Origin: Gammaproteobacteria bacterium
Lineage (GTDB): Bacteria > Pseudomonadota > Gammaproteobacteria > SZUA-152
Assembly: GCA_011051755.1 (NCBI GenBank)
Contig: DRKN01000089.1
Location: 4,917 to 68,916 of the forward strand
Length of the DNA: 64,000 bases
Reading direction: 5' to 3'
Shown: positions 4,249 to 62,084 of the stretch, in pieces
How the letters are laid out: each line of letters begins with the position of its first letter
Numbering within the stretch: the first letter of the stretch is position 1
Notes under the pieces: model-generated
Told to the model about the DNA's origin: nothing
Database searches by the model: none
Seen by the model: only the letters and a program-made list of their open reading frames with translations
Translations under genes and position numbers: made by a program

Positions 4249-5673
4249 TCAAATTCCCGTCACGGACTCACTGCGTTGCAGGCCATACTTGCGCAATTTC
4301 TCGACGAGGGTGGTGCGGCGCATCTTCAGCCGCTTGGCGGCATGGGCCACCACACCGCCCGCCTCGTCCAGCGCCTGCTTGATCAGCGAGCACTCGACGG
4401 TGGAAATATGCTCTTTGAGGTCCAGCCCCTCACGCGGCAAGCGGGCAGGCTGTAAGGGCATCACGGGTGTCAACTGCGGATCCAGCGTGATCTGCGGCAG
4501 ATTTTCGCCACTGCCAGCGGGACGGAACTTAGCCGGTAAATCACCCACATCGACAATGCCATATGGATGCATGATGACCAGCCGTTCGAGCAGGTTGGAC
4601 AGCTCGCGCACATTACCCGGCCAGCGGTACTGGCACAGGGCAATCAGTGCGGCCGGTGTAAAGCGTACTGAGCCACGTTTTTCATTTTCCATGCGCGCGA
4701 TCAGTTCATTCACCAGCAGGGGCACATCGTCGATGCGCTCACGCAGGGGCGGCATGTCGATGGGAAAGACGTTCAGGCGGTAATACAGGTCTTCGCGGAA
4801 TTTACCCGCGCTGATCAGTTCATCAAGATTGCGATGCGTGGCGGCGACGATACGCACATCGGCGCTCAGCACTTTGTTACCGCCGATGCGTTCGAAAGTA
4901 CGTTCTTGTAGCACCCGCAACAGCTTGACCTGCATGGTCGTAGGCATATCGCCGATTTCATCGAGGAACAGGGTGCCACCCTCGGCCATTTCAAAGCGGC
5001 CGCGACGGGCGCTGATGGCGCCGGTAAAGGCGCCCTTCTCGTGACCAAAGAGTTCGCTTTCCAGCAGCTCGCCGGGAATGGCGCCACAGTTGATGGGGAC
5101 GAACGGTTTGTCACGACGGGAGGAATGGTAGTGCAGGTTGCGCGCCACCACTTCCTTACCGGTACCGGACTCACCCAGAATCAGCACCGTGGCGTCCGTG
5201 TCCGCCACCTGTTCGATGAGCTTGTGCACCTCAAGGATGCCACGGCTATTACCTACCAGACTGCGGAAAAGCTCCAGGTTCATACCACCACCGCGCTTTT
5301 GACTCAGTCGATAAACCTGGGCGCGGTGCAGAGCGTCGGAGACCTCGGCGTAACGCATGGGAAGATTGATCAGACTAAACGCGTTCTTGACCATGTCCTG
5401 GTCAAGATCATGCTCGCCATTTTCCGCAACCAGCACCAAAACAGGTATATTTCCAGGCGCCTGACGCAGTGTGTCAAAGGTTGTCTTACGCGCCTCTGCG
5501 GAGCTACACCCCCCCAGGATAATGGCCTCAACCCCATCGTCCAGCCTATCGCCGGCCGCCTGGTAGTCGATGATGGTGATCGGCTCCTGGGCAACGAATT
5601 CGAGTATCGCGGCAAGCTTGTCCCGCTGCTGCTTATCGTCTTCCACCAGCAAGATAGTCATGGAATCGGGCAT
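4249..5673 (-). CDS. fleQ: Sigma-54-dependent master flagellar activator (FleQ/FlrA-like)
   Basis: The best start is MPDSMTILLVEDD at 5671-5673, with a GGAG RBS. It has GESGTGKE, GAFTGA and a C-terminal HTH. It sits upstream of fleSR, as FleQ does in Pseudomonas. Confidence 0.8.
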   Translation of the reverse strand: MPDSMTILLVEDDKQQRDKLAAILEFVAQEPITIIDYQAAGDRLDDGVEAIILGGCSSAEARKTTFDTLRQAPGNIPVLVLVAENGEHDLDQDMVKNAFSLINLPMRYAEVSDALHRAQVYRLSQKRGGGMNLELFRSLVGNSRGILEVHKLIEQVADTDATVLILGESGTGKEVVARNLHYHSSRRDKPFVPINCGAIPGELLESELFGHEKGAFTGAISARRGRFEMAEGGTLFLDEIGDMPTTMQVKLLRVLQERTFERIGGNKVLSADVRIVAATHRNLDELISAGKFREDLYYRLNVFPIDMPPLRERIDDVPLLVNELIARMENEKRGSVRFTPAALIALCQYRWPGNVRELSNLLERLVIMHPYGIVDVGDLPAKFRPAGSGENLPQITLDPQLTPVMPLQPARLPREGLDLKEHISTVECSLIKQALDEAGGVVAHAAKRLKMRRTTLVEKLRKYGLQRSESVTGI

Positions 5674-6860
5674 TTTTTTCTCCGTGCACCAGTCGAGTAC
5701 TCTGTCCATATTCACCTTGACGAAGTACTTGGACTCCGTCAGTTTTCCCAGCCCGCTAAGTAAAACACCTGATTTCCGGTATGTCAAAATATTGTCACGA
5801 GAAATAAAGGGAAAATGCCTTTAAAAACGGAGAGCTATCGATTTTTCCTGAATACGGACACAAAGAAACAGGCTCAACTCACTATCCTTTCACCGTGGTT
5901 TGACGTCTTTCGGAGGAGCCGCTCCGGTGGGCGCGTAGTTTGTGCCCACGCGCTACAAACCGCGTTGTAGGAAATTTCTGAAGTCGATGCGATATTTTGG
6001 GCATGTGCTCGCTCCTTAATACCGAAAAACATACTGAATTTTAACCGGCACTTCGTAAGAAACAAGCTTCCAGGAGTCCTTTTCCGTGCGCAAATGCGCG
6101 CCCTGTCGTCCACAGGGCGCCCCGTTTGACCGCCCTTTGAGGTTTGATATAAACATGGCGTTTGATAGGTGTGCCCTTTGCTCGTCCACTTTACCGACCC
6201 TGTCATCTGCGGTGAGCCACCGCTATCAAAATCCGTGATCGCTTCTTGGGTCGCCAACTGGCCAATTTCATTACCGGCCTGTTGAATGGCTTCTTCGGCT
6301 TCAAACAGGGAGCCACTGATTATTGACCGTCACTTCCAGTGTCCGTTGTTTTTTGTCCGTGTGAGCAATTGTGCCATGATGAGTTTGCCTATTGTATACA
6401 AATCATGGTGTTGTAGAGTAAGCTTGGAAATCACATCATGCCAAGTTCTCACCCGGTAAGACCTTATGCTGTGTCGTTACAGCAGCTTTTCTGGAAAGAG
6501 AACAGGAATACCTCAAGATTAACCCCAACGTCAGGGCGAGACTGGAAAAATTGCCCGAACTACAACAGCCTTTTAACTTTTTCAGAACAATTGATCAGCT
6601 GGGTTTAGGCTCAAAATGATGAAGATACGAAGCCAAGACTGCCAGCACAAGAAACGATTCAGGAAGGCGACCTACGACTATCTTGGTGGTCTGGATCTTT
6701 AACCGACCGGTGTTAAACGGGAGGGATCGCCCGTTCGATAATGGGAAAGACCCAGAAAAAATAATGTATTTAAAACAGCATCACTACCGAATCAAGCGAT
6801 TTTTTTCTCCTATAAAGCCAATATTCTTGTTATTCATGGCGGCCGCTGCTGCAACAGAAA

Positions 6861-7601
6861 ATGCGTGACACCACCACAAACAACATCCACATCGAAATCT
6901 TTTCCGACGTACTCTGTGTCTGGGCCTACAGCGCACAGATCCGCTTCGACCAGCTGAAACGGGATTTCGGCGACCAACTGCAACTCCAGTACCGCTACAT
7001 TCCCATCTTTGCCGCCGTTGAAAAACGCATCGGCCAGGGCTGGAAAGACAAGGGTGGCTTTACCGGTTTCAACGAAAACCTGCACAAGACGGCCGCCGGC
7101 TGGGATCATGTCGAACTGCACCCGAAAATCTGGCTGCAAAACCGGCCGAAATCATCCACCGTGCCACACCTGTACCTGAAAGCCGTCCAGCTGCTGCAGG
7201 AACAGCACATCATCTCGACACAGGCACTAGTCCACCAAGGTTATATTGACGGAGCAAAACACGACGGCCACAGCCTGTTCGAGGCCTTTTCCTGGTACAT
7301 GCGCTGTGCCTTTTTCAAAGAGACGCAAAACATCGGTGAAATGTCCGTCCTCGACACCCTCGCCGAAGACATGGGCATCCCCGTGCCGTCCGTGCACGAA
7401 CGGCTCGACAACGGCGAGGCCCATGCCGCCCTGCAACTCGACAGCGACGCCCGCGACCACTATCGGGTACCGGGCAGCCCCACCCTGGTATTCAACGATG
7501 GTCGTCAGCGGCTATACGGCAATGTCGGCTACCGTATCATCGAGGCCAATATCCGTGAGCTGCTGAACGACGGCGACAGCGGGGAAGCCAGTTGGTGTTA
7601 G
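6861..7601 (+). CDS. DsbA-family thioredoxin-fold oxidoreductase (FrnE / 2-hydroxychromene-2-carboxylate isomerase-like)
   Basis: The N-terminus is IEIFSDVLCVWAY, with a single active-site Cys in a DsbA-like fold. 246 aa. Confidence 0.6.
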   Translation: MRDTTTNNIHIEIFSDVLCVWAYSAQIRFDQLKRDFGDQLQLQYRYIPIFAAVEKRIGQGWKDKGGFTGFNENLHKTAAGWDHVELHPKIWLQNRPKSSTVPHLYLKAVQLLQEQHIISTQALVHQGYIDGAKHDGHSLFEAFSWYMRCAFFKETQNIGEMSVLDTLAEDMGIPVPSVHERLDNGEAHAALQLDSDARDHYRVPGSPTLVFNDGRQRLYGNVGYRIIEANIRELLNDGDSGEASWC

Positions 7602-7793: not shown

Positions 7794-8525
7794 ATGGCAA
7801 TCCTCTGGCAAAAACAGGTCGGCGACACCCGTTACGAAGTGCGCACCGCCGGGCGTTCGCGACGCCTGTATTCCAATGGCGTATTCCACAGTCAGTACCA
7901 CCCGGGTCGCCCCCACGCCGGCGGCGTCTGGGATCTGCTCATGTTGCCAGCTTTTTTCCGCTCGCCCACGCGTATCAGACGCATCCTGGTGCTGGGTGTT
8001 GGTGGTGGCACGGTGATTCATCTGTTGCAACGTTTTCTGCGGCCGGAAGCAATCATCGGCGTGGAATTGAACCCTGTTCACCTACAGGTGGCGCGGCAGT
8101 TCTTCGATATCAGGAAAGACATGGCCACCCTGCACCAGGCCGATGCCGTGCAGTGGCTGAACGACTACGACGGCCCCGCCTTCGACATGATTATCGATGA
8201 CCTGTTCGGCAACGAAGACACCGGTCGCGCGGTGCCCGCCGACACGGCGTGGTGCAGCATCTTGCTGCGCAATCTCAACCGCAATGGCGTGCTGGTGATG
8301 AATTTCATCGGCGGCAAGGCCTTGCGCCACAGCGCCTGCGTCAGCGAACCGCTGATCGCCCGTCACTTCACGTCCCGCTTTCAGCTTAGTCTGCCGGCCT
8401 ACGAAAACGCCATCGGCGCCTTCCTCGGCCACCCGGCCAGCAGCCAGGGCCTGCGCAAGAATCTTGCCCGCGTGCCCGAACTCTCCAGCAAGCGCATCGA
8501 CTTTCGCATCCGGCAGATCACTTGA
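7794..8525 (+). CDS. Spermidine-synthase-like SAM-dependent methyltransferase / aminopropyltransferase family protein
   Basis: It has the VLGVGGGT glycine-rich SAM/dcSAM-binding motif and a DDLF acidic motif. 243 aa. Confidence 0.55.
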   Translation: MAILWQKQVGDTRYEVRTAGRSRRLYSNGVFHSQYHPGRPHAGGVWDLLMLPAFFRSPTRIRRILVLGVGGGTVIHLLQRFLRPEAIIGVELNPVHLQVARQFFDIRKDMATLHQADAVQWLNDYDGPAFDMIIDDLFGNEDTGRAVPADTAWCSILLRNLNRNGVLVMNFIGGKALRHSACVSEPLIARHFTSRFQLSLPAYENAIGAFLGHPASSQGLRKNLARVPELSSKRIDFRIRQIT

Positions 8526-8743
8526 TAAGCGCCGGAGGAAGGTGCTGTAGAAATTCCATTTCTTTCATCATTGAACGATTTCAGTACCATCGAGCACACA
8601 GCGCGCGCCACGAACAGGTGTAGTGTGCGCCGTGCGCACAAGATGGATATCCCATTCCTCTGTAAACGCTGCATCTCTGCGATGAGCTGAATAATGACTC
8701 TTTTCTTTGCGCTCCCCGCCCCCCTGCGCCCACTTCATTTGAC

Positions 8744-11248
8744 TCAACCCTGCCGCAATACCACCAGCGGTGGACTGCTCACCACCCGCCGCGTACCCAG
8801 CAAACCCGCCAATCCGACACCCAGCCCGCCACCCACCGGCCCCAGCAACCATAACCAAAAATTGACGGTGTATTCCAGCTCCAGCACCTGCGTCGCCAAC
8901 ACGTAGCCCAGCACGCTGGCGAGCGCCGCGGCCAACAACCCTGCCAATGCGCCGAGAGTGACGAACTCGCTGGCCAGACTCTGCCACAGGCGGCTGCGGC
9001 GCGCCCCGAGGGCACGCAGCACGGCATTCTCGCGCAGACGTTCGTCGAGACTGGATTGAATCGCGGCGTACAACACCGTGAGTCCAGCGGCGAGGGTGAA
9101 CAGAAATACATATTTCACCGCCAACACCACACGCTCGATGATACTGCGAATCTGATTCATCAGCGCCGACACATCGATCACCGTAAGATTGGGAAAACGT
9201 TTGATCAGTGCATCCATCTGTGCCACGTGCTGCGGGGCCAGAAAGAAACTGGTGATATAACTGGCCGGATAATCCTGCAGCAGACCCGGCGGCGACAACA
9301 CGAAAAAATTGGCGCGAAAACTGTCCCATTGCACACTGCGCAGGCTGGTCACCGTTGCTGTCACTCTTTGCCCGGCAATGTCGTAAGTCAGTCGATCACC
9401 AAGAGCGATACCGAGGGTACGGGCAATGCCCTCCTCCACGGAAAATTGCGCCACGTCAATGGCGTTCCCTGTTGCATCGAGCGCCCACCACTGGCCAGCG
9501 GTAATGGCATTATCGACTTGTCGTCGTGTCGTCCAGGAAAGATTGAACTCCCGCTCGACAAGACTCTGCGCATGCTCGTCCCGATAGTCACCGGGGCCGA
9601 CCGGCTTGTCATTAATACCCTTCAAGCGCGCGCGCACCATGGGGTAAAACGTCGCCTCAGGCAGTCCCGTATCACGGAAAAAGGCCTGTACATCGGCCAG
9701 CTGACCGGGTTGAATATTGATCACGAAGCGATTCGGCGCATCCACCGGCAACCGCCCCGCCCACGCGTCCAGCAGGTCATCGTGCACCACGCCCAACAAC
9801 AGCAACACCATCAAGCCCAGGCCGAAGGCCATCACCTGCGCCACGCTGGCCCCGGGCCGGCGGCTCAGGTTGGCCAGTCCGAAGCGCCATGCCACCTGCC
9901 CCCGGCGCGGCAACCGCCGCAACAAGCGCACCAGCAACGCCGCACCCAGCCACAGCACCAGTGCGGTAACGGTGATCCCGGCGATCATCGCCAGAGCCAG
10001 CGGCCCATCACCCGCCTGCCACCCGATCAACGTGGCGAGGATCAGCAGTCCCAGCAAATAAGAACCGGCACTGGCCGGGCGCAGTCCCCCCAGTTCACGA
10101 CGCAGCACACGCAGGGTCGGCACCGACTTGAGCTGTATCACCGGCGGCAGGGCAAAGCCCAGCAAGCCACCCAGGGCCACGGCCATCCCCATCAACACCG
10201 GCAGCAATGAAGCCGGCGGCAAACTCACCATAAATAGCGGCCCCAGCAGCGTCACCAACACCCCCTGCGCGGCAAAGCCCAGCAGCGAACCGAGCAACCC
10301 CGCCAGCAGGCCGAGGGTGGACATCTGCCACAAAAACAAACGGTTGATCTGTCCCTGCCGCGCACCCAGACAGCGCAGCACGGCACAGGTGTCGAGGTGA
10401 CGACGGGCAAAGCGCCGCGCCGCCATGGCGATGGCCACGCAGGCCAACACCACGCCCACCACGGCGGCCAGACCGAGAAACTGTTGCGCCCGCTGCAAGG
10501 CATTGCGAACCTCCGGACGCGCATCGCGCACGCCCTCCATGCGTTCGCCCGCGCCAAGGCGATTCATTATCGCTGAGCGAAAATGCGCCACGGCATCGCT
10601 CTCCCCTGCCAGCAGCAGCGTGTATTGCATGCGGCTGCCTTCCTGTTCCAGGCCACTGGCGGGCAGATCGGCGAGATTCATCAACAGGCGCGGGGCAATG
10701 CTGAACATGGCGCCGCTGCGATCCGGCTCATAACGGAGTACGGCAGCGATGCGCAGCGTAACATCGCCGACCTCGACGCGATCCCCCACCTCAAGCCCGA
10801 GCTGCTGCAACAGCAGCGGTTCCACCCACACCGCACCGCGCGGTGGCGGCCCCGTGCGGATCCGGGTGGCCGCGAACGGCGCCGATGCCGTGCGCAACTG
10901 GCCACGCAGGGGATAACCCGGCCCAGCGGCCTTGATCTCCGCCAGCCGCGCACCTTCACCCGCCATCACCATACTGCGGAAGGCACGGAATTCGGCGTGG
11001 CGCAGGCCCAATGTCTCGGCCCGTGTCCGCCATGCCGGCGGAAGCGGGTGATCGGCCAGCAGCCGCAGATCGGCGCCCAGCAGTTCACCGGCCTGACGGC
11101 CCAGGGCCTGACCGATGCGATCAGTGAAAAAAGCCACTGCGGTGACGCAGGTGACGGCGATCAGCAATGCCGCCAACAGCACCCGTAGCTCACCGCTGCG
11201 CCAGTCACGCCGCAGCAGGCGCAGCGCCAGCCGCATCATGCGGTGCAC
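8744..11248 (-). CDS. ybbP: ABC transporter permease with duplicated FtsX domains (YbbP family)
   Basis: 834 aa with many TM helices. It lies directly downstream of the YbbA-like ATPase, and tesA is divergent, so the synteny tesA<>ybbA-ybbP matches E. coli. Confidence 0.8.
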
Positions 11249-11937
11249 ACCAGGCGGCCATCATGCAGACTGAGCACGCGGTCACAACGGGCCGCCAGCT
11301 CACGGTCATGGGTCACCAGCACCAGGGTGGTGGCCTGCTCGCGATTGAGGTCAAACAACAGTTGGATGACCCGCTCGCCAGTGTGCGAATCGAGATTACC
11401 CGTCGGCTCGTCCGCCAGCAGCAGCGACGGCCCGACGGCAAAAGCACGGGCGATGGCGACGCGCTGCTGTTCACCGCCGGAGAGTTGCAGGGGCGTGTGT
11501 TGCAGACGCTCGCCCAGCCCCACCCACACCAACACATCTGCGGCCCGATGCCGGGCATCATTGCGTCCCGCCAACTCCAGTGGCAGCATGACATTCTCCA
11601 GCGCCGTGAGCATGGGCAACAGCTGGAAGGACTGAAACACGAAACCCAGTTTTTCGGCGCGCAGGCTGGCGCGATCATCTTCGCCGAGGGCGCTAAGATC
11701 CACACCGTCCAGCAGCACCCGTCCACGGCTGGGGTCGTCCAGTCCCGCCAACAGTCCCAGCAGGGTGGACTTGCCGGAACCCGATGGCCCGGTGATGGCC
11801 ACCGATTCAGCGGCGAGAATGTCCAGGTCGATGTCGCCCAAAATCGTCAGCCAGCCATCGCTTTCGCCCGCCAGCGACGGCACATCCTTGCCCAGCCCCT
11901 CCACTTTCAGCACAACCTCATTTAAGCTCTGCAACAT
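11236..11937 (-). CDS. ybbA: ABC transporter ATP-binding protein (YbbA/LolD-like)
   Basis: It has Walker [10 protein letters not shown], the LSGGEQQR signature and Walker B LLLADEPT. The start was chosen at MLQSLNEV (11935-11937) by alignment with E. coli YbbA. Upstream in-frame codons would run into tesA. Confidence 0.75.
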
Positions 11938-17502: not shown

Positions 17503-19969
<2,467 letters not shown>

Positions 19970-20419
19970 TCAGGTGGAACAGTGGATTCAGGAAGGGGCA
20001 AAAGGGTAGCAGAATGGCGTGAATTGCTCAATGGCGGCCAACCGGAAGCCTGTACCCGGACGCTACAGAGCCACACCCTGCCCGGTGGCGGAATGCAGCA
20101 ACAAAACCATATTTTACAAAGGGATAAAGACACCCGGGCTGGGCTGGTTAAGCGCCCAATAGTGCTTGAATACAGCTTCAAGAATCCCGTCAGTCAGGCT
20201 CACTTCATCACCTTGTGTGGCACATCGGTTCCGGCTTCCATCATTTCCCCGGTTTTCAGGACATTGCCCGGGCCACCCGGCAGCCCGGGCCGGAATGCAT
20301 CAATGATTTCTATCACGTCAGCGCGGCACACTGGAACCCTGCCGTACAACATACCGATGATCGTCACTGGCTCAGTGAGCCGTCAGAAAAAGCAACCCCG
20401 CCCCCTTTTCTGTCATCAC

Positions 20420-20848
20420 CTACTTGATTTCCAATAATTGCATCTTGTGTGCAAAATATTCAAACACCTTTCGCTCTCTACCAATATTGCATGCGCCACT
20501 TGTTTTTGTTACTGAACTTGGATAAACAATGCCATTGTTTGCAACAGCGACAGCCGTATATTTCGCAATACACCGCTCCTTATTTTCTGCTAGTGTCTCG
20601 ATTAGCAAAACATAAAAATTCCCAATCCGCTCTGCATGAGGAATATTGGTTTGAGAATGATGAATAAACCGGCAATTCTTCGATGATTCTTTCTCAAAGA
20701 AATGAATTTTTTCCATTTTACCTTTTGGCTGTGTCACTGATAGCGTACAATTTGCATTTAGCTCCAGCTTGGAGTCAAAGATTAATAGTGGGCCGGCATA
20801 TGAACAACCTGTGACCGTAAAAAAAATTACAAAAGAAAAACTTTTCAT
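20420..20848 (-). CDS. tai4: Putative Tai4-like immunity lipoprotein (cognate to the upstream Tae4)
   Basis: The start MKSFSFVIFFTVTGCSY gives a signal peptide and a lipobox Cys. About 142 aa. The 4-nt ATGA overlap with the tae4 stop is the usual effector/immunity coupling. The local GC is far below that of the flanking genes. Confidence 0.5.
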   Translation of the reverse strand: MKSFSFVIFFTVTGCSYAGPLLIFDSKLELNANCTLSVTQPKGKMEKIHFFEKESSKNCRFIHHSQTNIPHAERIGNFYVLLIETLAENKERCIAKYTAVAVANNGIVYPSSVTKTSGACNIGRERKVFEYFAHKMQLLEIK

Positions 20849-21279
20849 GGCAGTGTCCACATCCAAATCGTTTTTGCATCCCAATATGAGTCCCCGACAG
20901 CAACGTTGTTTTCCCATAAATCGATATGACCCTGACCGTTAAAACCAGGGACATTCATATAACAAACAACTCCTTTTTTTCCAATCGCGTTTGCGGGAGC
21001 CGATCCACTTGGCTGGGCATTCCAACCGAGAGTTCGCATTCCCCATACGCTCGGTAGAGCTAAAATAGAAGCTAAATCCTGGGCGCCACGAATATAACCA
21101 TGAGGACACTTGTTCTTCGGGGATCTTTTGAAGGCATCTAAAAGCTTTGGGTCAGCCCTGACAAGTGCTTCACTCATTCGTATTGCGCACGTATTGGGAA
21201 AATGCATTGAGCATGTGTGTATCTGTGTAGACTGTGTTTTATAATTTGTTTTCACTTTTGTAAACGCAGGCTTCATCAT
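20845..21279 (-). CDS. tae4: Tae4-family type VI secretion amidase effector (peptidoglycan DL-endopeptidase)
   Basis: 144 aa. NTCAIRMSEAL matches the Tae4 catalytic-Cys block (N-A-C-P-I-R-M-S in Salmonella/Enterobacter Tae4). The C-terminal GQGHIDLWEN...WMWTLP matches the Tae4 His block and C-terminus. A GAGGAG RBS is present. Confidence 0.7.
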   Translation of the reverse strand: MMKPAFTKVKTNYKTQSTQIHTCSMHFPNTCAIRMSEALVRADPKLLDAFKRSPKNKCPHGYIRGAQDLASILALPSVWGMRTLGWNAQPSGSAPANAIGKKGVVCYMNVPGFNGQGHIDLWENNVAVGDSYWDAKTIWMWTLP

Positions 21280-21592
21280 CCACTGATTCTCCTCGGTATG
21301 TTAATTTTTGGCCAACTTATTAGTATTGATAGTTGCGTAAATATTCGCAGTCGTTCCTCCTTGTTACCTGGGGAAAACACTTGTTTTCATGCGAGAACAT
21401 ACACAACTGTTAATATTAAGCATAAGAGCCCTATTTCCCTGCAATATTAGACCAAAAATCAGGCAATAACATTCGACAATCACCTAAAAACAAGCCAATT
21501 CGCCTTGATGTCTTTATAACGCCATAAAATTCAGGCATGTTTTCGTTATTCAAACACCTAAACAAGTAGCGGGACGCTATAAACAACTTTCG

Positions 21593-22717
21593 TCACGCCT
21601 CGCGCCGCAGCATGGCCAGGCATTCCACATGCCAGGTCTGTGGAAAGAAGTCGTAGGGTTGCAGCCGCTCCACCCGATAACCTGCCATGCATAGGCGTTG
21701 CAGATCACGCGACAGGGTGCCGGCACTACAGGACAGATAGGCCATACGCTGCGGACGGTAGTCTTCGCAGATCCAGTCGAGCACCGCCGGTTCCAGCCCG
21801 CTGCGCGGTGGATTCACGTACAGCAGACGTTCGCCGGGCGCCGCCACCCATTCACGCACCTGCGGCAGACGCTGTGCGCAAGGGCCGCGCAACACCGGCA
21901 CCCCCGGGGCGTTGTGCGCTGCACAGGCCACCGCCTCGGCGCCAATCTCCACCCCCAGCACGCGTGCGCCAGCCTGCTGCCAACACCGCAGGGTGCGGCC
22001 GCTGCCACAATAGAGATCAACGATCCGGGTATGCGCATCCGGTGCCAGGAACGCCTGCGCGGCATCGAGAGATTGGGCATAGAGTGCCGGGATCAGCTGC
22101 TGAAAGGCGCTGGGCCCATAGCGCATGCCCGCCTCGTCCGTGGAATACGGCACGCCCCACAACAAGTGCCAGCCGTTCTTGTGAAACAGGCGTTTGCCGG
22201 CAGAGGGGAACAGCTGTAACCAGAGCCCCTCGACGCCGGCCCGGTGCAGGGCCTGTACGGTGTCGGCATTGAACCAGGCATTGTCGGGTGGCCTCGCCGT
22301 CTTTAGCACCAGGGTGACCTGTGCCCCCGCCTGCACATAGAAGGCAAGGGGAAAATGCGCCGCGGCGGGCAATACTTGCAGCAGCGCGGCGAGGGTTTTT
22401 CGCACCCGCACGCTGTGCACCGGGCAAGCGCGGATATCGATAACCTCGTCGCGCCGCATCAGGCCGATGCGCCATTCATCACACGCATCCCCGCCGGCCA
22501 CCCACTGCGCCGTCAACGTCACCCGGTCACGATAGGCCCAGCGCCGTGTGCCGCTCACCACACGGATCGGCGCCAGACATTCGCGCCACGGCGCCAACGC
22601 GCCGGTCAGCCAGCCGAGCTTCTGTGTCTCACTGGCCCGTGCCGACAGGGCGCGATGGGCACAGCCGTTGCAGTCCACCCGGCAACCCGCAACCCGTGTT
22701 ACCGCAGGGCTCGGCAT
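21593..22717 (-). CDS. rlmC: 23S rRNA (uracil-5-)-methyltransferase RlmC/RumB-like
   Basis: 374 aa. It has an N-terminal Cys cluster (C..C..C plus a fourth Cys) for the Fe-S centre, then DLYCGSGRT, VNPPRSG, the nucleophile SCS and a C-terminal YxxxRxxxxDxFPxTxHxE block collinear with E. coli RlmC. Confidence 0.7.
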   Translation of the reverse strand: MPSPAVTRVAGCRVDCNGCAHRALSARASETQKLGWLTGALAPWRECLAPIRVVSGTRRWAYRDRVTLTAQWVAGGDACDEWRIGLMRRDEVIDIRACPVHSVRVRKTLAALLQVLPAAAHFPLAFYVQAGAQVTLVLKTARPPDNAWFNADTVQALHRAGVEGLWLQLFPSAGKRLFHKNGWHLLWGVPYSTDEAGMRYGPSAFQQLIPALYAQSLDAAQAFLAPDAHTRIVDLYCGSGRTLRCWQQAGARVLGVEIGAEAVACAAHNAPGVPVLRGPCAQRLPQVREWVAAPGERLLYVNPPRSGLEPAVLDWICEDYRPQRMAYLSCSAGTLSRDLQRLCMAGYRVERLQPYDFFPQTWHVECLAMLRREA

Positions 22718-27701: not shown

Positions 27702-28394
27702 ATGAGCAACAATGCGCAAAAACTGGATTTCGCCACCGTGATCGCCAGCGCCGTTCACGACATGAAAAACTCCCTTACCCTGCTACTGGACACGCTGGAT
27801 GACACCGCCAGCGAGCAAAGCATTGCAGCAACCCCCTTGCAGGAAAAGCTACTGCAAGCTCAACATGAAGGGAAAAGGCTCAACCGAAATCTCATCCAGC
27901 TACTAGCACTCTATCGCCTGGAGCGTCGCCAGCTATTCATCAATATCACCGAGAACGGTGTTGCCGAACTACTCGAAGATGTCGCCATGGAAAACCAGCA
28001 ACTGCTGGATGCCAGAAATATAAAACTGGAAATAGATTGTGAAAGAGGACTCATCGGATTTTTTGATCGTGAGCTTATTAGCGGAATCGTTAATACCATC
28101 ATCAACAATTCCTACCGCTACACCAAAAACACCATACGCCTCAGTGGAAAAAATCAAGGCCGCTATCTGTGCATTCATATAGAGGATAATGGCCCTGGCT
28201 ACCCGGAAAAAATGCTACACGGTGAAAGTAACACGGACTCACCCATCGACTTCCAAACCGGCAGCACTGGTCTTGGCCTCTATTTCGCTGCGCAGATCGC
28301 TCGAATGCACAGTAATAGTGAATGTCATGGCTATACCGAAACCAGCAACGATGGCATCAACAAGGGTGGCAAATTCAGTCTGTTCTTACCCTGA
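27702..28394 (+). CDS. Soluble, sensor-less histidine kinase (HisKA-like H-box + HATPase_c)
   Basis: The start MSNNAQKLDFATVIASAVHDMKNSL is 13 nt after the receiver-TPR stop. It has the N-box IINNSYRYT and the G-boxes DNGPGY and GSTGLGL. About 230 aa with no TM or sensor domain. Confidence 0.75.
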   Translation: MSNNAQKLDFATVIASAVHDMKNSLTLLLDTLDDTASEQSIAATPLQEKLLQAQHEGKRLNRNLIQLLALYRLERRQLFINITENGVAELLEDVAMENQQLLDARNIKLEIDCERGLIGFFDRELISGIVNTIINNSYRYTKNTIRLSGKNQGRYLCIHIEDNGPGYPEKMLHGESNTDSPIDFQTGSTGLGLYFAAQIARMHSNSECHGYTETSNDGINKGGKFSLFLP

Positions 28395-28536
28395 CACCGA
28401 CGGCAAACGGGGCGGCCGGCCCGCTTTTGCAATCCAGCCCTGTCATCAATCCCTGAGATTACACATATAGGACGGTAGGTTTCACGCATCGGTCGAGAGC
28501 AGTGACGCCGATAAATAGGGAGATGTCTATCCATAT

Positions 28537-28666
28537 TTGTGCGCACAGCGCACACTACACTTGCCCGTAGCATGCACTGTGCGCACGACATCCCTGAAAT
28601 AGAACCACTCAGCAACAAAAAACATGAAATACAAGCCTGTAGGGTGGGCACGTCTTTGGTGCCCAC
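28537..28666. repeat. REP cluster: family-C doublet (TGTGCGCACAGCGCACACTAC ... CGTAGCATGCACTGTGCGCACGAC, 28537-28590) plus a family-B copy (28637-28666)
   Basis: Family C (GTAGCGTGCGCCGTGCGCAC) also occurs at 8620-8639, 37339-37363 and 60181-60228. Confidence 0.75.
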
Positions 28667-28727
28667 GCGGTTGACTGTAATGATATAGTTACTTCATTTG
28701 TCTAAAACCCCTAACCGGAGAAAACGA

Positions 28728-29441
28728 ATGGAATTGCCAAATTTAAGGCGCGAAATCAGATACGGAATGCCTGCCGCAGATCAAGTCATATTCAATAGAC
28801 ATTACGTGCTGGGTTATTCGTACTATTTTCGCCAAGCAAAATGGGCTTTGGAAATTGTAGATCCTGACAATATTCGCTTGGATCGCGCAGATAACTTTCG
28901 ACCGGATTACCGAATACCCGAGAATTTTCGGGCTGACCTCGTTGATTATTCCGGCTCTGATTATGACCGCGGCCATCTCGTGGCAAGCGCCAACCAAAGA
29001 GAAACAAAATTACAAAACAGTGAAACATTTCTTTTATCCAATACGTCGCCACAAAGACCCCAATTCAACAGAGATATATGGGGTAAATTGGAAGCTGAAA
29101 TCAGAAATCTGAATGCCAAACCAAAAATACTGGAAACGTATGTCATTTGCGGCCCTATTTTCTATTTTGACAAGCCAGTCGAATGCATAGGAAGCAACGA
29201 TTCCAACAAGGTAAAAATTCCGGTGCCTCATGCCTATTTTAAGTCTGTCTTGACCGAGAATAACAGAGGAACCCTCCACATGTGGTCATTCATACTGGCG
29301 AACGAGGAATCCAACCAGGCACTGGATACATTTGCAGTACCAACGACATTGGTTGAAAAATTAGCCGGCATCAATTTATGGGAAAGTTTGGTAGGAAGAA
29401 AAATTGACCGGGAAAAATCAAGAGTCCGCAAAATGTGGTGA
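28728..29441 (+). CDS. DNA/RNA non-specific endonuclease (Endonuclease_NS / EndoG-NucA family), no signal peptide
   Basis: The beta-beta-alpha-metal catalytic motif DRGHLVASANQ is present. The start MELPNLRR has a GGAG RBS. 237 aa in markedly AT-rich local DNA. Confidence 0.75.
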   Translation: MELPNLRREIRYGMPAADQVIFNRHYVLGYSYYFRQAKWALEIVDPDNIRLDRADNFRPDYRIPENFRADLVDYSGSDYDRGHLVASANQRETKLQNSETFLLSNTSPQRPQFNRDIWGKLEAEIRNLNAKPKILETYVICGPIFYFDKPVECIGSNDSNKVKIPVPHAYFKSVLTENNRGTLHMWSFILANEESNQALDTFAVPTTLVEKLAGINLWESLVGRKIDREKSRVRKMW

Positions 29442-29699
29442 ACCCTCAAAAAAACCAGCCGCAAAATTTTGATGCCTTGCCACAGGCGGGCGCACAGTGG
29501 CCAAACACGGCATATATTGTTGCCGGGTTAATATTGTCGATTGGTGGTGACGCAGGAATCCCAACATTGTTGGTTTCGTTGGGGTTCGCAAGCTCACCAC
29601 CAACCTGCAAAACAGTCATTATCTTGTTAACTTAATGGCATTGATGGGCTTTCCATCCCATTGCCCTATTTCCAGCTTAGTGCTCATCACCGTCTCGGG

Positions 29700-30896
29700 C
29701 TAACGTCGTGATTCAATAACTTCACGTATCTCATCGTCGGTTAACACGATGGGGTTGGTGCGCATACTGCCACTGCGACAACCGGCAACGATGCTGTCCA
29801 CGTCCGATGCCCGGACACCATAGTGACCCAGGCGCGGAAGCGCCATTCGTTGGATCCATTCATGGAGTCTCGTGATCAACGCCGCCCATGCCTGCGGGTC
29901 GGTTAATTCTGCACCCGGATTCAACAAACGACCAAGCTGCGCATATTTTTCCAGCGCCGGACTGTCCGGCTGGCGTTGGCGCAGGCTGCGGATATTGCGC
30001 TCAGTGGCGGCTGCAACCAAGGTGCCACAGACAACGCCGTGGGGAATAGGAAAATAGGCACCGAGTGGCGACGCCAAACCATGTACGGACCCCAAGCCCA
30101 CCTGTGCCAGGGTAATGCCGGAGATGAGCGCGCCATAAGCTATGCCGGCACGTCCTTGCCTGGCCGCCGCACCATCCCCCCCTTCCCAGGCCGCCAAAAA
30201 ATGCTGGGTCATCGCTTGCAGACCACTCCATGCCAAGGCGTCCGTTAGCGGGTTTGCACGACACGACAGATACGATTCCAACAACTGGGTGAAAGCATCC
30301 ATGCCATTGGCGGCGATCAGCGCGGGTGGACAGGAGGCCAGCAATAACGGATCGACAACGGCAACCTCGGCCACCAGATCGGGATGACGAAACGATTTTT
30401 TAAAGCCATCACGCCCTTGCTCACTAAGCACCGCATTCATGGTGGCTTCACTGCCAGTACCGGCAGTAGTGGGTACCGCAATGAAAGGCACGGCAGGCCC
30501 CGCATAACTGAGACCCTGACCAACACCTTCCAGATAATCCATGACCGAATTCCCTTTTGGCAAGAGTCCGGCAATGGCCTTGGCCGCATCCAACACACTG
30601 CCACCACCAATTCCCAGAACGATATCAATACCTTTTTGGTAAAACTCCGCCACAATCCGATCCACCTGCTGTGGCGATGGCTCCCCGTCGACGATGACAT
30701 CGCTCCACTGCAATCCTGCCGCCGTCAGTGCATCCCGAAGCGGCGGCCAGTAGGGCGTGGCGCGAAAAGAGGAGGCTCCGGTCACCAATAACATCTGCCG
30801 ACCATAGGTGGCCACCAGGGCTGGTAGTTGCGTGTGGCTGTTTTCAGCAAAAATAATCCGTGGCAGACGGACGGTGGAAAATGCGGGTATCTCCAT
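29700..30896 (-). CDS. Iron-containing (group III) alcohol dehydrogenase
   Basis: The start MEIPAFSTV is at 30894-30896. It has GIGGGSVLDAAKA and the Fe-ADH His cluster. The track ORF has a long N-terminal over-extension. Confidence 0.8.
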   Translation of the reverse strand: MEIPAFSTVRLPRIIFAENSHTQLPALVATYGRQMLLVTGASSFRATPYWPPLRDALTAAGLQWSDVIVDGEPSPQQVDRIVAEFYQKGIDIVLGIGGGSVLDAAKAIAGLLPKGNSVMDYLEGVGQGLSYAGPAVPFIAVPTTAGTGSEATMNAVLSEQGRDGFKKSFRHPDLVAEVAVVDPLLLASCPPALIAANGMDAFTQLLESYLSCRANPLTDALAWSGLQAMTQHFLAAWEGGDGAAARQGRAGIAYGALISGITLAQVGLGSVHGLASPLGAYFPIPHGVVCGTLVAAATERNIRSLRQRQPDSPALEKYAQLGRLLNPGAELTDPQAWAALITRLHEWIQRMALPRLGHYGVRASDVDSIVAGCRSGSMRTNPIVLTDDEIREVIESRR

Positions 30897-59287: not shown

Positions 59288-59941
59288 TCACCCCGCCGCC
59301 CTACCGGGCTGACAGTATTTGCGCTTGTAGCCCACCAAGCCAAGAAGGCCGATACCCATCATCAGGATGGAGGAAGGCTCGGCGACGGGAACCGTGCTAT
59401 TTAATTCAATTCGCAGGGTATCCCAATAGATATCTGCACCCATAACGCCATTCATCCCGCCGCTGTATTGTTGATCCAGCCCAGCGAGCAATACGTTAAC
59501 CTCAAAATTTGTGGTAGGCCCCGTATTGCCGAAATCATAGCTAACGGATCCACCGGAATACGGATTGACGGACCACGTCAATGCCCCGGCAGTGCCACTA
59601 AAAGGCGGCAGTGCAGGAATCAAGTAAACACCCGAGGTAAAGCTGGTGTCCGGCAGATCAAAATCCGAGATCGTATCGCCATTGAAATCCATCCAGAACC
59701 CGTCCAGGCTGAAGCTTATCGTGTATTCCCCCGGCACAAAAAGGCTCAGGTTTTCATCAATATTCCCGGAAGTACCCGTAAAGCTGAATGTGGCAGGATT
59801 GTTTATCCCTAAACCTACAGCATAATTAACTTCACCAATACCTGTTACGTTTGTTGCCTCATAATAAATTGACGTCGCCATTGCAGACCCGCCAAAACAC
59901 AAAAATGCAGCACAAGCAGTGGTCGTTATGAGCTTTTTCAT
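59288..59941 (-). CDS. PEP-CTERM sorting-domain secreted protein
   Basis: Signal peptide MKKLITTTACAAFLCFGGSAMA. The C-terminal tag is VPVAEPSSILMMGIGLLGLVGYKRK, a PEP-like motif plus TM helix plus basic cluster, which is the exosortase recognition signal. Confidence 0.75.
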   Translation of the reverse strand: MKKLITTTACAAFLCFGGSAMATSIYYEATNVTGIGEVNYAVGLGINNPATFSFTGTSGNIDENLSLFVPGEYTISFSLDGFWMDFNGDTISDFDLPDTSFTSGVYLIPALPPFSGTAGALTWSVNPYSGGSVSYDFGNTGPTTNFEVNVLLAGLDQQYSGGMNGVMGADIYWDTLRIELNSTVPVAEPSSILMMGIGLLGLVGYKRKYCQPGRAAG

Positions 59942-60180
59942 TCGTCTACCTCTTTAGCAGCCTGTTAAATCGCCGTATTTATTACTTACCGGCACACGCA
60001 ATAACCTTAAGCAAACAGGGTGCCACCCACAACAACCACTTGAAATGAAAGGGAACCATACAGTGCAAACCAGTTGGAACCCCGATCACTGTAAAAAATA
60101 CCGACAGCCCCATAAAATCGCCGTTTCGATTCAGTTCGCTACAGAGTGATAGAATTTACAAAGGAAGTGTTTATCCCTAT

Positions 60181-60228
60181 TGCGCGCACAGCACACACCT
60201 GCCCGTAGCGTGTGCCATGCGCACGATG
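60181..60228. repeat. REP family C doublet
   Basis: tgcgcgcacagcacacac ... cgtagcgtgtgccatgcgcacgat. Confidence 0.7.
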
Positions 60229-60516
60229 CCCCCAGGATCAGGAAATCATTGAAACTACGAAATTTCGAACCGGACTCTGACGACTCCCCACAAAAAACCT
60301 GGTGGGGTGGGCAGGTTTTTCATGCCCGGGTGGAATATGCGTCAACGACTAAATTTCGGACCGAGTCCGGAGACCCAAAACACTTCGCGGGGCAAACCCT
60401 AACGAGAGAGGCTGCCTGAATTTATGTCCCAAACACCTTCAATCATGCTGCACACTTTGCAAACAGAGTATTCAAAATACGGTAAAAATCTGTTAATGGC
60501 ACAACAATAACCATGG

Positions 60517-60882
60517 CTACTGACTCAGATTCACCGCAATTCCGACAAAATCCTCAACGTTCTTTTTCTCAACATCCTCAATGATATAAATCTTTATATG
60601 CCGCCTTTTTTTACCCTTGCCTTCCAGCACCTTATCGGGATCTGGGAATTCAGCGCCAAAACTGAATTCAATGGAAATGTGTTTCGCATAAACGAAAATA
60701 CCGCCTATCAAGGTATTGGAAAGGATAAACACCAAGCCACCATATTTTATATCTTCAACTAAACCCGAATTGGTATTGTGAAATATCGTTCTTATCGATA
60801 TAAGAATTTCAAACATTTCCGGTGATTGATATTGAATGTCGTTTAAAAAACTATCAACTTTATCATTATTCGAAAAATTCAT
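60517..60882 (-). CDS. DUF1801 (YdhG-like) domain protein
   Basis: 121 aa. It follows the DUF1801 pattern (...KYGGLVF...IGGIFVYAKHISIEFSFGAEFPDPDKVLEGKGKKRRHIKI...). The region has very low GC. Confidence 0.55.
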   Translation of the reverse strand: MNFSNNDKVDSFLNDIQYQSPEMFEILISIRTIFHNTNSGLVEDIKYGGLVFILSNTLIGGIFVYAKHISIEFSFGAEFPDPDKVLEGKGKKRRHIKIYIIEDVEKKNVEDFVGIAVNLSQ

Positions 60883-61094
60883 CTCAGTTACTCACTTAGC
60901 AATCTTTCTTAAAAAAACGTCTCTCATTACCTGTAGTACATCGCTCAGGCTCAGTGATAGTAATGCCCAGTATTCAAACATCGTAGAGCAGCATACCTCA
61001 CACCAGACCACCATATTTACTAGCGATCACAGGGTCATATCTTAGCGCATAATGTCATACGATCATTAATAAACATAGATCTCCAACATTATAA

Positions 61095-61349
61095 TTATGG
61101 CATCAGCAACCGAAAATTGGCCACCGCTACTGAAATGCCATTTACCACAACTTCCACTGCCTGCATTCCTGGATAGAACACGCGAGCAGTGATTTTTCTA
61201 CGTTCTTTACTTGCGCCTTTCATCCACTGCTCTGCTATTCCAATCACAGCATCAGAATGATCTTTAGCAATATCATTTAGGTTATTTGCAACCGAACGTC
61301 GGACATATTCTTTATCATCATCTTTGAGCCGTTCCAGTAGATCGATCAC
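61095..61349 (-). pseudogene. C-terminal fragment of an AlkD-like (HEAT-repeat) DNA alkylation repair glycosylase
   Basis: ...KEYVRRSVANNLNDIAKDHSDAVIGIAEQWMKGASKERRKI matches the conserved C-terminal block of DNA alkylation repair proteins (PF08713). Only about 80 codons are in frame. Upstream sequence is in other frames and is interrupted. Confidence 0.55.
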
Positions 61350-61580
61350 TGGAGAAGTGATTTTTGATATACATCGGCAATCTCATCGCCCAAGGCAATC
61401 CTGACCGACGTCCTTCCGAAACCAATCGCCGTACGTGTTGATTGTTATCAGTAGTCCAGGTTTTCAACACCGATAATGTTTTTTAAAGACTGGGGGAGAT
61501 GCTCTACTTCATTGCATCGCGGTTGACATCCTCAAAAAAGCTGTGCTACCGGGCTACAGATTCTGCTGAGAAGCCAAATA

Positions 61581-62084
61581 TTATTTATTATTGATGCTCA
61601 GCATTGAGTAAAGAACATTTGACAGGCGCTTTATTTTTTCAATTAATTCTTCATGCCCTTTTTGATGGATTTTTGTTTCTGGACTGGACATTACTTCTTC
61701 CACAAATCTTTTTTGTGTGTTTTGGTAATCTTCGTGATCAGGAAATAGTTCACGGATTTTTTCAAGTTCTTCGGCATCCAGCCATATACCGCCACACTGA
61801 GGACATTCATCAATCTCGATCTGGAATTTACTGCTATAGAAACGGCGCATCATTATTACATCTGTATCACGCGGGCAATTCAGCCTTTTGTTCACATCGA
61901 CTAAAGGGTTGTGATATTCTCTTAGGTGTTCAATTAAAACTTCCCCCATAGCAATGGATGATTGATTAAGTTTATCTAGCTCAAAATTATCGAACCATAT
62001 CCCCCCACATCCTTCTGAAATATCCAGATCTATTCCGGCTACTTTTATTGGTTTAAGCAATTTCCTAGTCCTCGGACACTTCAT
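61581..62084 (-). CDS. Protein with two tandem zf-TFIIB-type zinc ribbons (CPxC...C.GCGGIWFD; CPRD...CPQCGGIWLD)
   Basis: 167 aa. Two copies of the CxxC-x(n)-CxxCGGIW(F/L)D motif are characteristic of PF13453 zinc ribbons. AT-rich context. Confidence 0.55.
   Translation of the reverse strand: MKCPRTRKLLKPIKVAGIDLDISEGCGGIWFDNFELDKLNQSSIAMGEVLIEHLREYHNPLVDVNKRLNCPRDTDVIMMRRFYSSKFQIEIDECPQCGGIWLDAEELEKIRELFPDHEDYQNTQKRFVEEVMSSPETKIHQKGHEELIEKIKRLSNVLYSMLSINNK

Follow-up and report, generated by a model that had tools for sequence, protein, structure and literature searches.

In the present study, we analysed a stretch of 64,000 nucleotides (the window) from a gammaproteobacterium (contig DRKN01000089.1, assembly GCA_011051755.1, positions 4,917 to 68,916), and in particular a small low-GC islet which lies between the CTP synthase gene pyrG and an RNA methyltransferase gene. 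The islet holds two overlapping genes, one for a Tae4-family peptidoglycan amidase (the effector) and one, directly downstream, for a lipoprotein (the partner). We consider, with a probability of about 80%, that this islet is a horizontally acquired, self-contained and mobile orphan module made of a type VI secretion system (T6SS) cargo effector and its immunity protein. An earlier note, made from the letters of this DNA alone, had already proposed an orphan Tae4/Tai4 effector-immunity pair of the type VI kind, placed in a low-GC islet. That reading was right in substance and is partly supported here, and the present result is a well-supported refinement that overturns no current understanding.

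The effector

The effector is, on the evidence of profile searches and a predicted structure, a genuine Tae4-family amidase. The Pfam model PF14113 (Tae4), which has a gathering score of 27, matched it with 48.2 bits (E 1.5e-12) over profile positions 2-125 of 125. When it was compared with the PDB sequences by phmmer, the Tae4 of Agrobacterium tumefaciens (AtTae4; 6ijf_C) was found at 1.7e-10 and Ssp1 of Serratia marcescens (4bi3) at 2.6e-7, and the Tae4 proteins of Salmonella and Enterobacter were weaker matches (E 5e-4 to 0.04). A profile built from 94 effector homologues reached Ssp1 and AtTae4 both at 3.4e-15. The AlphaFold2 model built on the same alignment had a mean predicted local distance difference test score (pLDDT) of 93.3. 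In a Foldseek search of this model against the PDB, the top 11 matches were all Tae4/Ssp1 chains (TM score 0.66-0.73, probability 1.0, E 6e-8 to 6e-6), and the next match stood at E 0.15.

The catalytic residues point to the same family and also to a branch within it. The effector begins with MMKPAFTKVKTNYKTQSTQIHTCSMHFPNTCAIRMSEAL, carries the cysteine block FPNTCAIRMSEAL and later reads GQGHIDLWENN...TIWMWTLP. In the HMMER alignment, C31 falls on the catalytic Cys50 of Ssp1, and the entry of the C50A mutant mismatches exactly there; H118 falls on His133 and D120 on D135. The 94 homologues show no variation at H118, I119 and D120 and hardly any at C31 (at least 90% conserved). Two triad geometries have been described in the Tae4 family: in Ssp1 (C50/H133/D135) and AtTae4 (C47/H131/D133) the Asp stands at His+2, and in the Salmonella/Enterobacter-type Tae4 the catalytic Asp lies elsewhere (PMC6277958). 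In the effector, the motif G-H118-I-D120-L-W places the Asp two residues after the His, and from this triad spacing it belongs to the Ssp1/AtTae4 branch and not to the Salmonella type. Thus, the Tae4 membership claimed earlier was confirmed by the Pfam score, the modelled fold and the triad C31/H118/D120, and the comparison of a predicted structure with Tae4, which had been suggested as a check, led to the solved Tae4/Ssp1 structures. The motif comparison of the earlier note needs a correction: the Cys block and the His-containing C-terminus are present, but the motif is GHIDLW of the Ssp1/AtTae4 type and not GHVTLW of the Salmonella/Enterobacter type.

Judged by sequence and model, the effector is a papain-like (NlpC/P60-type) cysteine amidase, which by homology would cut the gamma-D-Glu-meso-diaminopimelate bond of the peptidoglycan stem peptides. 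A ribosome-binding site (GAGGAG, 21294-21289) lies 9 nt upstream of the first ATG. The protein has no signal peptide, and since it carries no export signal it is expected to be harmless in the cytoplasm of its producer. This branch of effectors is already labelled Tae4 in the databases. A phage-lysin origin was considered and rejected, as no relative of the effector was found among 2.9 million viral contigs.

Two other forms of the domain were observed. Proteins of 241 aa (P0008, P0028, P0040; L025 5072-5797, L026 770-1495) are 63-71% identical to the effector and have a conserved N-terminal extension of about 95 aa without known family; their genes are placed between rpsA and a sigma-70 gene, lack a partner gene, and could represent a non-toxin use of the domain. 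In addition, fusions of about 345 aa join a SLOG cluster-4 (LDcluster4) domain to a C-terminal Tae4 domain (L058 7392-8429, L062 7401-8429; also L060, L061, L063 and L064), and no partner-family gene follows them.

The partner lipoprotein

The partner is very probably the antidote of the adjoining Tae4. Its open reading frame (ORF) can be read from 20917 (20420..20917(-)) and contains MKSFSFVIFFTVTGC, but translation more likely begins at the ATG at 20848, where start codon and Tae4 stop overlap in an ATGA. From this start the N-terminus MKSFSFVIFFTVTGCSYAG shows a short positive end, a hydrophobic core and the lipobox V12-T13-G14-C15. The ORFs found 3' of Tae4 homologues elsewhere are homologues of the partner (blastp 1e-8 to 1e-99), and all of these carry a signal peptide (Sec-type or lipobox) and the invariant cysteines C34, C59, C93 and C120. 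The strict co-occurrence of the two families gives indirect support to the view that the partner binds and neutralises its cognate Tae4, as we infer.

The family to which the partner belongs has escaped annotation. The protein matches no Pfam model at E <= 1 and no NCBIfam model, and its k-mer search gave two relatives only. A search with the family profile found 32 proteins, all called hypothetical, and HMMER, run exhaustively against 1.84 billion cluster representatives, gave 61. When 28 members were compared with Pfam, the best match was DUF3898 (E 0.0019), and none of the 28 matched a Tai4 model. No related structure was detected among the PDB sequences with the family profile, which gave lectins only, at E >= 0.2. 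The partner was modelled by AlphaFold2 (pLDDT 80.9) with nine beta strands and a single helix at the C-terminus, and Foldseek returned no PDB match for it at E <= 0.001.

The solved Tai4 proteins are alpha-helical (five-helix) homodimers (PMC6277958). Hence, with no match to a Tai4 model among the 28 members and with a beta-rich model against a helical Tai4, the identity of the partner as Tai4 was rejected. The earlier note was correct that the overlapping downstream ORF encodes a lipoprotein with a signal peptide, as the lipobox VTGC and the ATGA overlap show, but its Tai4 assignment does not hold. By profile and model, the partner appears to form a separate immunity family which probably does the same job. 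A beta topology has been reported to be common to PliI-Ah, to Tsi1 (a T6SS immunity protein) and to X-Tfi (an immunity protein of the type IV secretion system, T4SS), all three of which inhibit peptidoglycan hydrolases through a loop inserted into the active site (PMC10933484). The partner plausibly falls in this structural class, for which its model gives modest evidence. If so, it would be a second example of a beta-rich PliI/Tsi1-like scaffold directed against a peptidoglycan amidase. Since the partner is listed everywhere as a hypothetical protein, recognising it as a conserved, exported and disulfide-bearing family provides a new immunity family that can be tested.

The module in other genomes and its genomic link to type VI secretion

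Another 72 loci with Tae4 homologues came from metagenome contigs. With our own profiles, nearly every Tae4 homologue of about 144 aa in the metagenomic loci was found to be followed by a member of the partner family, and the partner family was also found 3' of the Tae4 gene in Vibrio, Thalassotalea, Agarivorans, Thiotrichaceae and many metagenomes. The Vibrio pair forms an integron cassette between attC (VCR-type) repeats of about 120 nt (L002 9739-9859 and 10852-10970), and the cassettes around it encode toxin-antitoxin, acetyltransferase, Tlde1-like and TseH-like proteins. In Thalassotalea, a cassette-like array surrounds the module. The module thus moves between genomes as a unit, and it is found in T6SS clusters, in a Vibrio integron cassette and in solitary islets. 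The occurrence of the same 1-kb module in T6SS clusters, in a Vibrio integron and in an islet of a 60%-GC sulfur oxidiser indicates that interbacterial weapons and their shields circulate among marine bacteria. As an observation apart, the Vibrio arrays with the Tae4 pair (L002-L005) also hold two-gene cassettes of Tlde1/YkuD with DUF2195 and of the TseH-like kind; from these arrays, chromosomal integrons seem to stock several pairs of effector and immunity protein of the T6SS type.

The tie of this pair to the T6SS is one of genomic association and not a proof. On the metagenomic contig L046 the module stands inside a full T6SS cluster, in the order Hcp, TssE, TssF, TssG, ClpV, a 94-aa ORF, effector, partner, VgrG, PAAR and DUF4123 adaptor, and the effector there is 63% identical to that of the window. 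On two further contigs (L034 and L053) a ClpV homologue, 47-48% identical to the ClpV of L046 by tblastn, lies directly upstream of the Tae4 gene. Tae4 forms of lower similarity (37-43% identical; L084 55-8501 and L075 2-3204) were observed downstream of VgrG, PAAR and DUF4123 genes, which is the classical arrangement of an auxiliary cluster.

Both genes of the window are intact. In comparison with the 94%-identical copies described below, the effector gene had a ratio of nonsynonymous to synonymous substitution rates (dN/dS) of 0.14-0.17 and the partner gene one of 0.17-0.19, and therefore both genes have been under purifying selection. Some other copies are altered. On L027 (798-1296) the partner gene is split beside an intact effector, and on L052 (8390-9304) two tandem partner genes follow one effector.

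Boundaries, empty site and mobility of the islet

Base composition marks the islet as foreign. The GC content of 20420-21592 is 40.1% against a window mean of 56.6%, and the GC content at third codon positions (GC3) is 0.39 in the effector gene and 0.34 in the partner gene against 0.75-0.80 in eno, kdsA, pyrG and the methyltransferase gene. The sharp fall in GC relative to the backbone, which had been pointed out before, is therefore real. The segment that is specific to the window extends over about 20160-21589 (about 1.43 kb) and is slightly larger than the interval 20420-21592 first reported. In three empty-site relatives (L011, L015 and L016) the alignment with the window stops at 21589 and resumes at 20160, which refines the extent of the islet between pyrG and the methyltransferase gene. 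Between those points they hold about 290 bp with a 22-codon ORF and a hairpin. By these alignments, about 1.43 kb in the window has taken the place of ancestral intergenic DNA of about 290 bp, downstream of the methyltransferase gene. The 290-bp stretch itself (L011 3565-3852, L015 6260-6550, L016 6207-6474) is conserved among these relatives and gone from the window; its 22-codon ORF is hydrophobic and is read on the opposite strand (MELSIGLWVGLFALAALGMFTG).

The same module, at 94% identity, is present in L006, L013, L027 and probably L010, where the similarity runs from 21570 to 20413. It ends 7 nt past the partner stop, beyond which each contig differs. Two segments are found in the window only, namely 84 nt at 21327-21410 and 254 nt at 20160-20413. 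No integrase, transposase, attC, target duplication or terminal repeats were found at the islet, only short repeats that are probably due to chance. One of these is a 13-nt exact direct repeat, TATTCAAACACCT, at 20457-20469 and 21547-21559, near but not at the ends of the conserved module; one copy lies inside the partner coding region, and the repeat probably arose by chance. In three related contigs, an insertion of about 150 bp resembling a miniature inverted-repeat transposable element, with terminal inverted repeats GAGCTTGCGAAACCCG.../...CGGGTTTCGCAAGYTC, follows just after the methyltransferase stop (L010 1702-1852; L013 6598-6752; L006 1-38, which corresponds to window 21570); it is absent from the window.

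The arrangement on L013 bears on how the cargo is exchanged. At 8227-11777 this contig has a second copy of the methyltransferase 3' end and of the 156-nt spacer, followed by unrelated low-GC cargo: a 221-aa ORF, a ParE toxin (PF05016), a DUF6624 protein and a helix-turn-helix (HTH) fragment. Because these duplicated flanks border different cargo, the site may be a recombination hot spot at which cargo is exchanged by homologous recombination through the flanks. The duplication suggests either such a cargo-swapping hot spot or a chimeric assembly of the metagenome-assembled genome (MAG).

Proposed function and alternative explanations

In the explanation that we favour, the effector would be a small cargo protein, loaded into the Hcp tube and fired into the periplasm of a neighbour by a T6SS that is presumably encoded elsewhere in this genome. 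Ssp1 and Ssp2 are known as amidases carried as T6SS cargo, and the interior of Hcp is where small effectors of this kind are bound (PMC4924876). The downstream gene, translationally coupled to that of the effector, would give a lipoprotein that is exported to the periplasm, probably with two disulfides, and that would block toxin arriving from sister cells by binding it. This would occur through a beta-rich fold, plausibly of the PliI-type inhibitor kind and not the helical Tai4 fold.

Several results weigh against this explanation. No T6SS gene was detected in the 64-kb window by Pfam annotation of about 47 large ORFs and by tblastn with 12 proteins of the T6SS cluster of L046, where ORFs shorter than 150 aa were covered by tblastn alone; the earlier statement that the window lacks T6SS structural genes thus stands. 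T6SS genes were also missing within 10 kb in seven Pfam-annotated contexts (Vibrio, Thalassotalea, Agarivorans, Thiotrichaceae and three metagenomic genomes), and several metagenomic contexts of the module likewise have no T6SS gene nearby, so that linkage, seen at three loci, is the exception. Furthermore, a split effector stands beside an intact partner in L013, L055, L070, L072, L073 and L090, so that some hosts may be able to do without the effector, unless assembly errors account for the splits. The scan for promoters and terminators stayed at the background of shuffled sequence, and no promoter was identified. In the literature on Tae4 and on integrons or Vibrio, we found no activity, binding or secretion data for this branch; a paper on the PoNe DNase (PMC13377157) was judged irrelevant to it.

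These same observations could be read as an acquired defence, in which a host without T6SS keeps the islet for immunity against the Tae4-type toxins of its neighbours and the effector is a decaying passenger. The absence of T6SS genes from the window, the solitary state of most copies, the split effectors listed above and the tandem partner genes of L052 would agree with it, and arrays of orphan immunity genes are known (PMC5361080; bioRxiv 10.1101/471110). Nevertheless, the effector of the window is intact with all its catalytic residues, and it is under purifying selection as strong as that on the partner. The lesion of the L013 effector is one extra T in a T-run, which could be a sequencing or assembly error, and L027 shows the opposite state, with the partner split and the effector intact. 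We therefore regard a purely defensive role as unlikely. A different proposal removes the T6SS altogether and makes the effector an endogenous amidase of the cell wall or of muropeptide recycling, or a toxin freed by lysis or another route, with the lipoprotein as a periplasmic regulator or a guard against cis-intoxication. The Tae4 domain is not restricted to T6SS toxins, as the partnerless 241-aa form between rpsA and the sigma-70 gene and the SLOG-Tae4 fusions indicate, and immunity against cis-toxicity has been documented for a T4SS peptidoglycan hydrolase (PMC10933484). However, the partner-bearing 144-aa form is precisely the one found in T6SS clusters, an unexported enzyme with an exported partner follows the classic logic of T6SS periplasmic effectors, and the viral-contig search argues against a phage lysin. 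This makes the proposal very unlikely.

The attC-bounded Vibrio pair and the cassette-like array of Thalassotalea raise the question of whether the islet is itself an integron gene cassette at a secondary site. We consider this extremely improbable, since the window gave no integrase, no target duplication and no inverted repeat resembling an attC, the end of module similarity 7 nt after the partner stop leaves no room for an attC, and the duplicated L013 flanks with their different cargo fit homologous recombination at a hot spot. A broader idea, doubtful but worth stating, is that a free-moving unit of toxin plus shield spreads by integron capture and hot-spot recombination into bacteria without T6SS, where it would be kept for the shield alone, or the toxin would leave the cell by a route independent of the T6SS; the partner would then be a new immunity family with structural ties to the PliI/Tsi1 inhibitors. 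If this were true, a Tae4 enzyme would have been re-paired with an inhibitor scaffold known to act against other peptidoglycan hydrolases.

Comparison with known systems

The putative T6SS effector-immunity pair of the window most resembles Ssp1-Rap1a (Tae4.1-Tai4) of Serratia marcescens and AtTae4-AtTai4 of Agrobacterium tumefaciens. They share the Pfam family, the fold (Foldseek TM about 0.7) and the Cys-His-x-Asp triad, and in each case a small, cargo-sized effector without signal peptide is followed directly by a periplasmic immunity gene. In contrast, the effector is only 22-25% identical to Ssp1 and AtTae4 and has an N-terminus shorter by about 20 residues, the partner (beta-rich, with four conserved Cys, from a family that is often lipidated) is unrelated to the alpha-helical homodimers Rap1a and AtTai4, and the pair does not lie beside hcp or vgrG. 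The Tae4-Tai4 pairs of Salmonella Typhimurium and Enterobacter cloacae have the same effector family, fold and presumed bond specificity; the effector of the window is more distant from them (phmmer E 5e-4 to 0.04), has its Asp at another position (PMC6277958) and goes with another immunity family. Tse1-Tsi1 (Tae1-Tai1) of Pseudomonas aeruginosa, PliI-Ah and X-Tfi XAC2610 are also among the closest known systems. With TseH-TsiH of Vibrio cholerae, the pair shares the state of a stand-alone orphan T6SS pair away from T6SS clusters with a patchy, horizontally transferred distribution (PMC5361080), but the toxin and immunity families of TseH-TsiH are other than those of the window.

Locus layout and flanking genes

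The features of the locus are given in Table 1. The host is a sulfur-oxidising gammaproteobacterium with SoxY, SoxA and DsrE-like genes in the window, and the genomes closest to it are MAGs that carry the labels Chromatiales and Ectothiorhodospiraceae.

Table 1. Features of the islet and its flanks (positions in the window)
Feature	Position	Strand	Remarks
CTP synthase pyrG	18329..19954	-	right flank, host backbone; then kdsA and eno
260-bp stretch, 55% GC	20160..20419	.	within the window-specific segment
Putative cognate immunity protein, 142-aa lipoprotein precursor	20420..20848	-	lipobox VTGC (Cys15), four invariant Cys, predicted beta-rich
Tae4-family peptidoglycan amidase (putative gamma-D-Glu-mDAP DL-endopeptidase), 144 aa	20845..21279	-	Pfam, fold, triad
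Non-coding leader, 37.7% GC	21280..21592	-	from methyltransferase stop to Tae4
RNA uracil-C5 methyltransferase, RlmD/RlmC/TrmA family	21593..22717	-	left flank, host backbone; Pfam PF05958; GC3 0.76

The flanking genes named in the earlier note were recovered with one qualification. The genes pyrG, kdsA (KDO8P synthase) and eno (enolase) matched NCBIfam equivalogs with 863, 437 and 702 bits. For the methyltransferase every NCBIfam match was far under the equivalog cut-offs, and for this reason rlmC is a loose, approximate name.

By alignment, the 313-nt leader consists in part of a 156-nt spacer (21415-21570) common to the related contigs and of the 84 nt seen in the window only. No stable RNA structure was found in the leader (folding z-score -0.51), and 19800-21800 gave no match in Rfam. 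By blastn against the related loci, the stretch downstream of the partner gene is missing both from the empty-site relatives and from the other copies of the module, and the search for an origin of 20160-20413 gave no match among plasmids or in any of the loci compared. A plus-strand ORF at 19982-20437, for which there is a gene call on a Logan contig, has no Pfam match and is probably spurious because it spans conserved intergenic DNA.

Elsewhere in the window, an ARAGORN prediction of a 93-nt tRNA-Ile(GAT) at 8053-8145 on the minus strand is probably a false positive, since it lies inside a 243-aa plus-strand ORF with a weak spermidine-synthase match. The stretch 27900-29700 is also low in GC; it contains a DNA/RNA non-specific endonuclease (PF01223, 28698-29441), which is flanked by genes for a histidine kinase and for an iron alcohol dehydrogenase. 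Further low-GC stretches were seen at 5650-6900 and at 59400-61700, and among the products of the latter are a PEP-CTERM protein (59288-59941) and, from 60517-60882, a DUF1801 protein.

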